Source: Caldimicrobium thiodismutans
Lineage (GTDB): Bacteria; Desulfobacterota; Thermodesulfobacteria; Thermodesulfobacteriales; Thermodesulfobacteriaceae
Assembly: GCF_001548275.1 (NCBI RefSeq)
Contig: NZ_AP014945.1
Span: forward strand, 930,001-962,000
Length of the DNA stretch: 32,000 nucleotides
Direction of reading: 5' to 3'
Below the pieces are notes generated by a model that saw nothing but the letters and a program-made list of their open reading frames with translations, made no database searches and was not told the origin of the DNA. This document shows positions 5,305-30,185 of the stretch, one piece after another (positions within the stretch are counted from its first letter, which is position 1; every line of letters begins with the position of its first letter). The translations under genes were made by a program, and so were the position numbers.

Positions 5305-5310
5305 ACTATA

Positions 5311-5338
5311 ATTTTATTCAAAGTTCTCTTTTATTCAA
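5311..5338 (-). promoter_or_regulatory. Candidate promoter TTGAAT-N16-TAAAAT for the L,D-transpeptidase/panC transcription unit
   Basis: On the minus strand, TTGAAT is at 5338-5333 and TAAAAT at 5316-5311. The -10 element ends only 6 nt before the GTG start. Confidence 0.45.
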
Positions 5339-5343
5339 GAGAA

Positions 5344-5530
5344 ATGTATGCGTCCATACCTTTTGAGACTCTATAGAATTTCTATGTGTTTGCCTGTTAT
5401 GTGTGTTTTAAACCCCTACACAGGGCATACACGCAAGGGCCTCCGCACTTATTACTTCTCACCTCTTACTTCTTTCCTCTTTTTTCTTTCCACTCTTCTT
5501 TTTTCTTGGAAGAATCAGAACCTATGCAAA
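5344..5530 (+). repeat. Intergenic mosaic repeat, copy C (L module, half palindrome, pyrimidine tract, R module)
   Basis: 5344-5381 matches 25141-25178 at 35 of 38 positions. TTTTAAACCCCT at 5406-5417 equals the right arm of the 25268-25291 palindrome. 5499-5530 (TTTTTTCTTGGAAGAATCAGAACCTATGCAAA) is homologous to 25455-25485 and 19788-19820. Confidence 0.7.
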
Positions 5531-5547: not shown

Positions 5548-5586
5548 TTAACATTACTTTAACATTACTTTAAAACTCTTTTAATC
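5548..5586 (+). promoter_or_regulatory. Four phased Pho-box-like hexamers upstream of pstS
   Basis: TTAACA, TTAACA, TTAAAA and TTAATC start at 5548, 5559, 5570 and 5581, an exact 11-bp phasing. This matches the TT(A/T/C)ACA-N5 direct-repeat architecture of PhoP/PhoB boxes. They are followed by TAAAAT (5602-5607), a GAGGAGG RBS (5617-5623) and ATG 5631. Confidence 0.55.
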
Positions 5587-10610: not shown

Positions 10611-10794
10611 GGGATAAGATATCTTTGATTCTAAAAAACATTAAAAAATAAGAGGATGTCCTTTAACATATAAACTTAGATAAAAAAAAACGCACAGAAG
10701 CAAGATTTTTGGGATTTCTTGGAAGCTTTTGGATGGCTATTTAAGAGCCTTTAAGGGATTGCCTTAGTATAGAAAATGAAATATATTAAAAAAG

Positions 10795-19242: not shown

Positions 19243-19284
19243 CCCATTGCCTCATTAAAAATCTATTCAAAAATTTATCGTTGC
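19243..19284. repeat. Left arm of an imperfect inverted repeat of about 42-46 nt (partner at 19554-19599)
   Basis: CCCATTGCCTCATTAAAAATCTATTCAAAAATTTATCGTTGC aligns with the reverse complement of 19554-19599 (CCCGTAATGCCTCATTTAAAAATCTACTTGAAATAGGTTTCGTTGC). The core TGCCTCATT(T)AAAAATCTA is near-identical, and a third direct copy lies at 19281-19302. Confidence 0.65.
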
Positions 19285-19553
19285 CTCATATAAAAAATCT
19301 TAGCACCTCTCTTGAACCTTCACGAAAAAACTATCTATTTCGCCCCTCTTAAATTTTACAAGCTTAGTTCTTTCGTAAAACTTATTTCAAAGGAAAGAGC
19401 GGGTGAAAAGGTAAAGGAGCTTCACAGAGAGATAAGGAGATATCAGAGAAGACTTGAAAGAGCATATTTAAAGAAAAAGGGGATTATTCCCAGGATAAAA
19501 TTGACAATAAATAAGGGGAAGTTAAAATGATTTTATTTAGAAAATTAAATTCC

Positions 19554-19599
19554 GCAACGAAACCTATTTCAAGTAGATTTTTAAATGAGGCATTACGGG
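19554..19599. repeat. Right arm of the inverted repeat (partner at 19243-19284)
   Basis: See the left arm. The core TAGATTTTTAAATGAGGCA at 19574-19592 is the reverse complement of 19248-19265 with one 1-nt indel. Confidence 0.65.
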
Positions 19600-19602
19600 A
19601 AT

Positions 19603-19826
19603 TTGTAAGGAGCTAAAATTTTAAAACCCTTGATTTTTTTTGTGTCTGTTGTACCACAGACATTCCTGTCTATGTTTCTTTCATACCTTGGAGTGTAATT
19701 TACCTCCACAGGCAAGATTGCCTGTGTTACTTTTACAGACTTGTAAAGGCCTCACCTGTATAGATATCTAATTCCCCTTTTACCCCACTTTTTCTTGTAA
19801 GGATCTGAACTTATACAGAAGTAAGG
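19603..19826 (+). repeat. Intergenic mosaic repeat, copy A (hairpin, M module, R module)
   Basis: It aligns along its length with 25268-25485, most positions being identical by eye with a few short indels. Both copies share ACAGGCAAGATTGCCTGT (19708-19725), TAGATATCTA (19761-19770) and the TTTTTCTTGTAAGGATCTGAACTTATACAGAA end. Confidence 0.8.
19607..19641 (+). terminator. Terminator-like hairpin plus T8 run (plus strand)
   Basis: AAGG-AGCTAAAATTTTAAAAC-CCTT is an imperfect hairpin (19607-19631) followed by GA and eight T (19634-19641). It is homologous to the perfect palindrome plus T-run at 25268-25302. Confidence 0.35.
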
Positions 19827-20768: not shown

Positions 20769-21665
20769 TTATAATCCTGCTTCTCTATCAGGGACATCAG
20801 TGTAAAAGGTTATCCCAAGACTTTTGCAAAAGTTCTTTGCCTCACGGTCAATCATTGGAGAGATAATTATTTTTCTTGTGACCCTTCTACCTTCTTTTTT
20901 CTCAAAAAACTTTACCTTTCTCTCAAAAAGCAGGACATCTGCAGGACTAACGGAAGACTTAATCTCAGCTACAATAAGCTCACCATCTCTAATAATAAGG
21001 TCAATTTCAACAGTTTTACCAGGAAAACCCTCAAAGACCTCACCTTCTAAATCAGTTGTTTCATAATGTTCTACCTTGACCCCAAAGGTTTCCTCAAGGA
21101 GACCTTTTACTGCATTGCGAAAGGTTTTTTCTGATTTAATTCCCCATCTTGCCCCGAGGGCACCAATCTGCACATCCTGTCTCTTTCTTAAGGCAAGGAT
21201 TTCTTCCATCAGGATTTTATTGCCTTGAGAGAGTTCTTCAAGCTTCTGAGAATGTTCCTCAAGCCTCTTTGAATGCTCTTTCAGTATCTGAGAATGTTCC
21301 TCAAGTCTCTTTGAATGCTCTTTCAGTATCTGAGATTGCTCCTCAAGTCTCTTTGAATGCTCTTTCAGTATCTGAGATTGCTCCTCAAACCTCTTTGAAT
21401 GCTCCTCAAACCTCTTTGAATGCTCCTTCAGAATCTGAGAATGTTCTTCCCATCTTTTTTCACTCTCAATTCTTAAGTTCTTGATCTCTTCTAAAAGGGC
21501 TTTGATCTCTTCTTCAGTGGTTCTTTTGTCAGCAAAATTTTCTTTGAAAAGACTTGCTACATAATCCTTAAGAAGGGGATCTTCCTTTAAAAGCTCAGGG
21601 AGATCCCGAATTAACATTTCCTTTAAGGCTACTTTGGATCTAATACTTTTTTTAGCCCTTTGCAT
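20769..21665 (-). CDS. Uncharacterized protein with an N-terminal tandem-repeat coiled coil and a C-terminal PD-(D/E)xK-like (restriction-endonuclease-fold) domain
   Basis: 298-aa ORF with an AAGGAGGG RBS. The middle region has about 5.5 copies of a 14-aa unit (EEHSQILKEHSKRL). The C-terminus has VEIDLIIRDGELIVAEIKSS, which fits D...E-x-K. It resembles the coiled-coil plus small nuclease-fold proteins I recall being labelled DUF3782 in thermophiles; this is unverified. Confidence 0.6.
   Translation of the reverse strand: MQRAKKSIRSKVALKEMLIRDLPELLKEDPLLKDYVASLFKENFADKRTTEEEIKALLEEIKNLRIESEKRWEEHSQILKEHSKRFEEHSKRFEEQSQILKEHSKRLEEQSQILKEHSKRLEEHSQILKEHSKRLEEHSQKLEELSQGNKILMEEILALRKRQDVQIGALGARWGIKSEKTFRNAVKGLLEETFGVKVEHYETTDLEGEVFEGFPGKTVEIDLIIRDGELIVAEIKSSVSPADVLLFERKVKFFEKKEGRRVTRKIIISPMIDREAKNFCKSLGITFYTDVPDREAGL
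21246..21445 (-). repeat. In-frame 42-bp tandem repeat (about 4.7 units plus a 21-bp half-unit duplication) inside the 20769-21665 CDS
   Basis: Units start at 21246, 21288, 21330 and 21372. Unit 1 differs from unit 2 at 1 of 42 positions, and unit 2 from unit 3 at 2 of 42. Unit 4 contains a tandem 21-nt duplication (CTCAAACCTCTTTGAATGCTC twice). Confidence 0.9.
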
Positions 21666-24866: not shown

Positions 24867-25015
24867 AATTTCAAATTTAATGTCCAAGCCTGAAATTTGC
24901 TATCTCAATTTTTATAGGGGTTCTGAAAAATTTTTCCTTTTAGGGATTTTATTTTTTTAGGAATAGTTGAAAAAATGGGAAGATTTATTAAAAGAGCGTT
25001 ATTTTTATTTAAAAG

Positions 25016-25088
25016 CGCCCCCAACGGGATTCGAACCCGTGTCTCTGGCGTGAGAGGCCAGTATCCTTGGCCACTAGACGATGGGGGC
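25016..25088 (-). tRNA. tRNA-Glu (anticodon CUC), CCA not encoded
   Basis: I folded the cloverleaf by hand. The acceptor stem GCCCCCA/TGGGGGC has 7 bp, and the D arm is GTC/GAT with one G-U pair. The anticodon stem is CTGGC/GCCAG with loop CTCTCAC, giving anticodon CTC. The T arm is ACGGG-TTCGAAT-CCCGT and the discriminator is G. Confidence 0.93.
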
Positions 25089-25108
25089 AAAATTTACAAA
25101 TCTATTTA

Positions 25109-25136
25109 ATAATAATCTCTATCCTTGAATTGTCAA
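25109..25136 (-). promoter_or_regulatory. Candidate promoter TTGACA-N16-TATTAT for tRNA-Glu
   Basis: On the minus strand, TTGACA is at 25136-25131 and TATTAT at 25114-25109. The -10 element ends about 20 nt upstream of the tRNA 5' end. Confidence 0.55.
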
Positions 25137-25140
25137 GCAA

Positions 25141-25490
25141 ATGTTTGCGTCCATATCTTTTGAGACTCTATAGGATTTTTTCTTAGGGCGTAACACAAAT
25201 TAAATCTCTCCACATACCCGTTCCCCTTTGGAAAGAAAGGATAAATAATCTGCAAAATCAAAATAGTAGGGGTTTAAAATTTTAAACCCCTTGAATTTTT
25301 TTGTGGGTCTCTTGTAGCACAGACATTCTTGTCTGTGTTTCTTTTACAGATTGGAGTGTAATTTACTTTTACAGGCAAGATTGCCTGTGTTACATTCACA
25401 GATTTGTAAAGCTTCCCTTGTATAGATATCTAATTCCCCTTTTATCCCCCTTCCATTTTCTTGTAATGATCTGAACTTATGCAAATTTGA
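25141..25490 (+). repeat. Intergenic mosaic repeat, copy B (most complete: L module, unique segment, perfect palindrome, M module, R module)
   Basis: L is at 25141-25178. The 24-bp perfect palindrome AGGGGTTTAAAATTTTAAACCCCT is at 25268-25291. CACAGACA-TTCT-TGTCTGTG is at 25318-25337, ACAGGCAA-GA-TTGCCTGT at 25371-25388, TAGATATCTA at 25423-25432, and R at 25455-25485. Homologous to copies A, C and D. Confidence 0.8.
25268..25302 (+). terminator. Perfect 24-bp palindrome followed by a T7 run (terminator-like; T-rich on the other strand too)
   Basis: AGGGGTTTAAAA/TTTTAAACCCCT is followed by TGAA and seven T (25296-25302). On the minus strand the hairpin is followed by ACTATTTTGATTTTG. No annotated gene ends here. 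Confidence 0.4.
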
Positions 25491-25553
25491 CTTTCCCCCC
25501 TTTGTAGGTATCCTTAGGTCAAGAAGTAAAAAAAATTAAAGGGGATGTTAAGC

Positions 25554-30037: not shown

Positions 30038-30044
30038 ATCCCCA

Positions 30045-30073
30045 ATTATAACAAACCTTTATCTTATCCGCAA
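30045..30073 (-). promoter_or_regulatory. Candidate promoter TTGCGG-N17-TATAAT immediately upstream of arsC
   Basis: On the minus strand, TTGCGG is at 30073-30068 and TATAAT at 30050-30045. Only 7 nt (TGGGGAT) separate the -10 element from the arsC ATG. Confidence 0.45.
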
Positions 30074-30124
30074 TCTTCGGTATAAAGCTATATCTTTTAA
30101 AACCTAACTGAGATTTTTTCTGCC

Positions 30125-30185
30125 ATCTATTTTCTAAAATTTTTCCACCCTGCCTTTTTCTTCTAAGGATCTAAAAACTTAGGCA
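30125..30185 (+). repeat. Intergenic mosaic repeat, copy D (R module only)
   Basis: CCACCCTGCCTTTTTCTTCTAAGGATCTAAAAACTTAGGCA aligns with copy A (CCCCACTTTTTCTTGTAAGGATCTGAACTTATACA) and with copies B and C. Confidence 0.6.

Follow-up and report, generated by a model that had tools for sequence, protein, structure and literature searches.

Mosaic intergenic repeats of Caldimicrobium thiodismutans as very probable remnants of an IS481-like insertion sequence

Modular repeats in the intergenic gaps

The window analysed here, 32,000 nucleotides of the Caldimicrobium thiodismutans genome, encodes the proteins with accessions BAU23312-BAU23341. A 657-bp gap (24888-25544) holds a tRNA-Glu(CTC) gene on the minus strand (25015-25088), which flanks a repeat that we designate element A (25142-25483, minus strand). 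The tRNA gene has a promoter-like site, TTGACA-16-TATTAT (25136-25109), whose start lies 6 nt beyond the right inverted repeat (IRR) of element A. An earlier reading made from the letters alone (the sequence-only reading) had described this gap with its tRNA, and had taken 25141-25490 for the fullest member of a mosaic noncoding repeat family; element A does retain the most of all copies found.

Along the plus strand, element A begins with the L module (25142-25198, minus strand), which comprises the IRR, reading TGTTTGCGTCCATATC... from 25142, and the predicted last transposase codons (LCYALRKNPIESQKIWTQT). It is followed by a putative transposase catalytic-core fragment, YPFFPKGNGYVERFN (25199-25243, minus strand), which includes the region of the DDE glutamate. 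A perfect 24-bp palindrome, AGGGGTTTAAAATTTTAAACCCCT (25268-25291), extends with its T-run to 25302, and the whole looks like a terminator on both strands. The M module (25303-25432) consists of two direct sub-repeats of about 52 nt, each with a perfect 8-bp hairpin (CACAGACA/TGTCTGTG at 25318-25337 and ACAGGCAA/TTGCCTGT at 25371-25388), and closes with TAGATATCTA (25423-25432). The pyrimidine (Y) tract (25433-25454) is purine-rich and Shine-Dalgarno-like on the sense strand of the proposed insertion sequence (IS), and the R module (25455-25483, minus strand) is the left inverted repeat (IRL), whose minus strand reads TGCATAAGTTCAGATCATTACAAGAAAA from 25483. Palindrome, T-run, hairpins, TAGATATCTA and R, all listed before, were confirmed to be present. 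The IS sense strand of element A is the minus strand of the window, on which the order of parts is IRL (R), purine tract, M hairpins, palindrome, transposase fragment, and tail with IRR (L).

Parts of element A recur, as had been noted. The stretch 25261-25483 aligned with 19600-19817 of element B at 84% identity over 224 nt (E 2e-58), and L at 25139-25178 matched 5342-5381 with 92.5% identity. The R pattern occurs four times in the window, always on the plus strand (5501, 19790, 25456 and 30156), against a chance expectation of 0.09, in agreement with the common orientation claimed for the copies. The survey was extended to 88 kb of the species, made up of the window, a same-species JGI contig (99.3% identical to the window) and a 413-kb contig of a metagenome-assembled genome (MAG; 98% identical), which were reached by walking outwards from the window with exact-protein matches. 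An nhmmer profile of the Y-R region found exactly five copies in these 88 kb, 97-342 bp long and on the plus strand in five of five; the transposase sense strand is the minus strand in all IS copies of the window.

The copies differ in content. Element B (19597-19817, minus strand) consists of a degenerate palindrome followed by M, Y and R (IRL); the transposase fragment and the IRR are missing, and its left edge adjoins a second repeat, Family 2. In element C (5345-5528, minus strand) the IRR with a transposase tail (5345-5395) is followed by hairpin module N (5396-5445), then by a Y tract that contains 14-nt repeats (5446-5499) and finally by the IRL (5500-5528). Element D (30089-30185, minus strand) is a remnant of about 97 bp, with a decayed, L-like tail (30089-30121, z 4.7), a Y tract and the IRL (30156-30185). 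The fifth copy, F, lies about 15.5 kb past the right end of the window, shares module N with C at 66%, and has an R that overlaps with the stop codon belonging to a ygiQ-like gene. A collapsed copy had also been suspected at 10693-10725; this stretch showed no similarity to the repeats by blastn, Smith-Waterman alignment or nhmmer.

Beyond the 88 kb, searches of genome, metagenome and viral collections with the R patterns gave isolated chance matches only, the source genome not being among those collections, and a literature search on Caldimicrobium repeats returned a generic count of extragenic palindromes only. The carD-mdh gap, which carries copy B, measures 645 bp here and 140-180 bp in two other Caldimicrobium species; in both of these it is free of the element, with flanks too diverged for the junctions to be fixed. 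Among three same-species sequences, no insertion polymorphism was seen.

Family 2 (19246-19596, plus strand) is a separate MITE-like repeat of about 350 bp, bounded by terminal inverted repeats (G)AATTGCCTCATT... and ...AATGAGGCATTAC; the left one, paired with ...AATGAGGCATTAC, reads GAATTGCCTCATT..., and there is an internal direct repeat, TTGCCTCAT. An outward-facing promoter-like site, TTGACA-16-TAAAAT (19501-19528), is well conserved and followed by a conserved start region. Elsewhere in the 88 kb, Family 2 is represented by two more full copies (L043 7771-8100, minus strand; L056 20992-21325) and one fragment (L052 ~2679-2728). It differs between strains at 2 of 351 sites, and its small ORF is decaying (72, 42 and about 28 aa) and not conserved as a protein. 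Throughout the 88 kb, all gaps of 290 bp or more that are truly noncoding contain one or both repeat families, so the earlier statement that a single family fills most of the large gaps holds, and becomes fully true only with Family 2 included.

Transposase homology and the ends of the element

The small ORFs of the gaps gave one weak match against Pfam, to rve_3 (E 0.043), from a minus-strand ORF over the segment between L and the palindrome that had been called unique. This ORF includes ...PKGNGYVERFN..., which in rve-type DDE transposases is the signature surrounding the catalytic glutamate. Translated on the minus strand, 25133-25267 reads TILILQIIYPFFPKGNGYVERFNLCYALRKNPIESQKIWTQTFA up to a stop codon, and a peptide search with this translation turned up two more copies in this genome and a third in a metagenome, so that the segment is not unique. 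Segment and L together encode ...YPFFPKGNGYVERFN joined to LCYALRKNPIESQKIWTQT, which, judged by homology, is the end of the catalytic core and the C-terminal tail of an IS481-like DDE transposase.

Of the related proteins, P0164 (78 aa) and P0166 (62 aa) are encoded on the same chromosome and P0165 is on a metagenome contig; additional fragments are P0167, P0168 and P0169. The window peptide shares 91% identity with P0164, and tblastn against P0164 gave an E-value of 1e-18. The best match was NCBIfam NF033577, 'IS481 family transposase' (P0164, E 1.7e-13; P0167, 3.5e-20; P0169, 3e-11). P0169, whose C-terminal region is undeleted, aligns to residues 253-331, the C-terminus of a 331-aa IS481-like transposase (E 4e-19), and the tail encoded by L, IESQKIWTxT, matches the C-termini IESKMWWTDT and SESNMLWTNT of full-length IS481-like transposases. 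The earlier statement that no transposase is present was thus overturned by a minus-strand remnant in L and the adjoining segment. The related claim that no reading frame is conserved stands for M, where a minus-strand coding ORF was considered and rejected: its peptides from A and B are 53% identical at a DNA identity of about 85%, and it is therefore not under coding selection.

The R module was tied to the same gene by P0165 and P0169, whose N-termini, MHKFRSLQEKG, equal the minus-strand translation of R and run straight into ...FPKGNGYVERFN. Because both proteins fuse R-encoded residues to the transposase remnant, R is linked to the same transposase gene; taken with the transposase homology, this linkage places R, the segment called unique and L in one insertion sequence. 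The transposase fragments score 43-73 bits and their closest full-length relatives 135-190 bits, below the NCBIfam curated IS481 equivalog cut-off of 224 bits, and for this reason we name the element 'IS481-like'. Protein searches for an autonomous copy returned fragments only. No intact transposase of this lineage turned up in a set of 1.84 billion cluster representatives, where the closest matches of full length reach 44-52% identity.

The ends of the element were set by the points at which its copies diverge. On the right, six independent copies diverge just after ...WTxT, and the plus-strand terminus is TGT, at 25142 in A and 5345 in C; on the left, five DNA copies diverge at a minus-strand TG(C/T)ATAAG.... 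The two ends, TGTTTGCGTCCATATC... and TGCATAAGTTCAGATC... (the second also TG(C/T)ATAAGTTCAGATC), both start with TG. Free local alignment of the reverse complement of L with R was not significant, and its place was taken by an anchored comparison of the termini defined from the protein copies. Anchored at the TG termini and without gaps, the IRR (TGTTTGCGTCCATATCTTTTGAGAC) and the IRL (TGCATAAGTTCAGATCATTACAAGAAAA) agree at 12-13 of 19 positions, a match reached by a background of 9e-4 (at least 12 of 19) to 2e-4 of the positions in the 88 kb. Terminal inverted repeats, whose absence had been reported, are thus present, though weak and imperfect. Eukaryotic IS481EU relatives are reported to have TGT termini and terminal inverted repeats mostly below 50 bp, and target duplications are 6 bp in most prokaryotic IS481 members (PMC10045372), with a range of 2-15 bp. 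Here, as the sequence-only reading had it, no target-site duplication is visible at any copy, and the flanks of A (AGCAAA/AATTTG) and C (GAGAAA/AAAAAA) hold no convincing direct repeat.

Internal deletions and competing explanations

The core fragment YPFFPKGNGYVERFN of element A is joined to the tail LCYALRKNPIESQKIWTQT by a 50-codon deletion, and the junction, ERFN/LCYALRK, is identical in A, P0164 and P0166. Since the same junction occurs at at least three loci, a defective copy has multiplied, through transposition in trans or through recombination. P0165 carries another deletion, of 32 codons, and P0169 none. Element A also lacks all sequence upstream of YPFFPKGNG; in C the tail is joined to module N, D keeps about 97 bp, and B keeps the left half and adjoins Family 2. 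The mosaic look of the family arises because each copy has lost a different internal part. Searches of M, N and Family 2 for N-terminal transposase remnants, by tblastn with eight full-length relatives, by hmmscan on translated frames and by Smith-Waterman alignment scored against shuffles, gave no significant match, and M, N and the palindrome are not traceable to the IS. The palindrome with the M hairpins (25268-25432) may belong to the IS as its natural 5' leader or may be an insert of foreign origin.

Taken together, the repeat family very probably represents fossil, internally deleted copies of one IS481-like insertion sequence of C. thiodismutans. R would be its left terminal inverted repeat, leading into a purine-rich leader (the Y tract), the segment called unique a surviving piece of the DDE catalytic core, and L the last ~19 transposase codons with the right terminal inverted repeat; A would have retained most and D about 100 bp, some copies having also become joined to the MITE-like Family 2. 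The elements would once have been mobile by DDE transposition, and defective derivatives would have been mobilised in trans by a transposase recognising the TG-terminated repeats. They are presumably inert now, because no intact transposase nearer than about 52% identity was found. On this reading the mosaic repeats are ordinary genomic debris, not a new RNA or regulatory system, and the M hairpins with T-runs and the IS ends beside -35-like hexamers would be side effects rather than selected functions. The missing target-site duplication, the weak inverted repeat, the lack of an intact transposase and the untraced origin of M, N and the palindrome count against it, as does the diverged L-like sequence that two other species have beside tRNA-Glu (described below).

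Of the three candidates raised by the sequence-only reading, the decaying nonautonomous mobile element is thus borne out, whereas the structured small RNA and the regulatory DNA element gained no positive support. A family of structured sRNAs, in which M and the palindrome are transcribed on the plus strand to end at the hairpin/T-run sites and the C-rich Y tract pairs with Shine-Dalgarno sequences, appears highly improbable. The plus strand of M does fold beyond shuffled sequence (z -3.7; minus strand, z -1.6), three terminator-like hairpins lie on the plus strand, and the promoter-like site at 19501-19528, with 11 of 12 consensus matches, is directed into the module in copy B. Against this, consensus folding of M from A, B and their orthologues gave compensatory changes in 0 of 30 predicted pairs. 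The extended stem of A is not retained in B, where hairpin 1 has a C-A mismatch in this strain, M diverges neutrally between strains (10/258 sites), only two M copies exist in 88 kb, and M lies within an element whose ends and interior derive from a transposase. There is also no Rfam match: at the gathering threshold and at permissive E-values the search returned the tRNA only, with nothing in the gaps at E<0.1 or near a family threshold, in line with the earlier remark that no known RNA family is recognisable. As for the mismatch itself, hairpin 1 of copy B (19663-19670) reads TGTCTATG here and TGTCTGTG, with the stem intact, in the MAG (L055 ~2480), whose copy also has GTAG where the window has GTAC, just upstream of hairpin 1.

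REP/BIME-like units moved by a RAYT (IS200/IS605-type) transposase, with the IS481-like pieces as mere neighbours, would account for the GTAG directly before two palindromes (25265-25268 and 25313-25316), the single orientation in five of five copies and the enrichment of YTTGTAR in the gap. The GTAG motif was spotted after the fact, however, the palindromes are unlike each other in sequence and each was seen just two times in the 88 kb, and at other loci R and L are directly tied to the IS481-like gene, which makes this explanation extremely improbable.

A protein-binding, regulatory or architectural role, with R and the palindromes as predicted binding sites selected beside promoters, is very unlikely by our assessment. 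It draws on the invariance of R (0/88) and of the palindrome (0/77) between two strains, on the ends of element A, which lie 3-6 nt from the -35-like hexamers of the tRNA-Glu and hycI promoter-like sites, and on the left neighbour, which is the 5' end of a minus-strand gene at five of five copies. The zero substitutions in R are nonetheless not significant against the local neutral rate (P ~0.08), because only about 2.6 were expected. At three of the five copies R lies directly against the stop codon of a convergent gene and not against a promoter, the neighbours (tRNA-Glu, carD, ykuD, arsC-like, AAA-ATPase, hycI and pstS) form no coherent regulon, and the gaps hold no sigma-54 consensus and R no conserved sigma-70 promoter pattern. 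The possibility that R is an IHF, DnaA-box or dif-like site was weighed by eye and dropped for poor fit. Between strain and MAG, element A is 4.2% divergent, compared with 3.4% at four-fold sites of the flanking genes (3.4% near A and D, 1.9% near B), and L with the transposase fragment differs at 7/102 sites. Divergence of the elements is thus about neutral, as measured by a constraint test that is underpowered and not significant.

Within the reading as a dead IS, it is unlikely that parts were exapted, be it the invariant left inverted repeat with the C-rich tract or the palindrome/hairpin block. Such parts may act as an orientation-dependent insulator or terminator that halts antisense transcription into convergent genes, as a C-rich anti-Shine-Dalgarno sRNA, or as a protein-binding site just upstream of -35 boxes.

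Known repeat families and the genomic setting

The proposed element resembles IS481 members in its single DDE transposase with the core ...TDNGSEF...NGxVERFN..., in an ORF that runs into the right inverted repeat, in short imperfect terminal inverted repeats from TG(T), and in several defective copies with a common deletion junction. It differs from them in that no intact transposase was found, no target-site duplication is visible and its relatives fall under the curated cut-off, and in that palindrome and hairpin sequence, about 165 bp in all, is present in some copies. The copies are short, non-coding, bounded by terminal inverted repeats, present several times and derived from an IS by internal deletion, as MITEs are. 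The Correia (NEMIS) elements of Neisseria are MITEs that lie near promoter-like and terminator-like signals, and the present repeats are likewise short, non-coding and intergenic, between inverted repeats and near such signals. Unlike Correia elements, they are few (five in 88 kb) and heterogeneous in length, and because their transposase codons are still recognisable they resemble products of decay more than a single uniform MITE that was amplified. With the BIMEs of E. coli and the pneumococcal BOX elements (boxA-boxB-boxC) they share the form of intergenic mosaics with conserved end modules and a variable palindromic interior. BIME and BOX modules are not known to be transposase-derived, whereas the end modules here are the two IS ends and the variable interior results from deletions.

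The few large intergenic gaps of this tightly packed thermophile genome would accordingly be filled by IS and MITE debris rather than hidden RNA genes, and an IS481-like lineage, apparently extinct or unsampled, would have existed in the Thermodesulfobacteria. Finding IS481-like remnants as such will not surprise a specialist. Annotation is affected as well: P0164 is annotated as 'hypothetical protein' and the 62-aa P0166 as 'tRNA pseudouridine synthase B', and since both are IS481-like transposase fragments, such labels on small proteins of this kind are wrong.

Conservation of the tRNA-Glu(CTC) gene and of its promoter-like site extends to two other Caldimicrobium species (L040 13173-13420 and L041 13057-13376, compared with 25015-25544 of the window). 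In both, the spacing between the tRNA-Glu -35 hexamer and a diverged L-like sequence is the same as here, and this conserved position suggests an old insertion. An old insertion fits poorly with the 93% identity of L between A and C, unless gene conversion or re-insertion took place. The genes past the IS right-end sequence differ across the three genomes (TusA, TonB receptor and HycI), so there is a synteny breakpoint at this place. Remnant ends adjoining promoter-like -35 hexamers, together with this breakpoint at tRNA-Glu, may be of some use for studies of rearrangement and promoter evolution.

Several features of the neighbouring genes were recorded alongside the repeats. About 50 bp upstream of pstS, 5548-5580 holds two copies of TTAACATTACT followed by one of TTAAAACTCTT, direct repeats of 11-bp period that by their sequence look like candidate Pho boxes; downstream lie the pst operon, a PhoU-PhoU_div fusion and an OmpR-type regulator. 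The coding gene of ORF 20769-21665 (minus strand) contains at least ten tandem 21-nt (7-codon) repeats at 21184-21477, and its MAG orthologue, of 312 aa and with DUF3782 and PDDEXK_10 matches, differs in length and can be aligned in several repeat registers. Between its NUDIX and radical-SAM genes, the MAG (GCA_017880035.1, L055 6398-12177) has a 5.8-kb block missing from the window, with curli-type genes (for CsgE, CsgF, CsgG and a curlin-repeat protein) and with genes for two regulators of sigma70_r4/GerE type. Upstream of the arsC/LMW-PTP gene, 30038-30075 reads TTGCGG-17-TATAAT-7 nt-ATG, and upstream of ykuD, 5305-5340 has TAAAAT-6 nt-GTG; because these promoter-like hexamers lie so near the start codons, the mRNAs of both genes may be leaderless.
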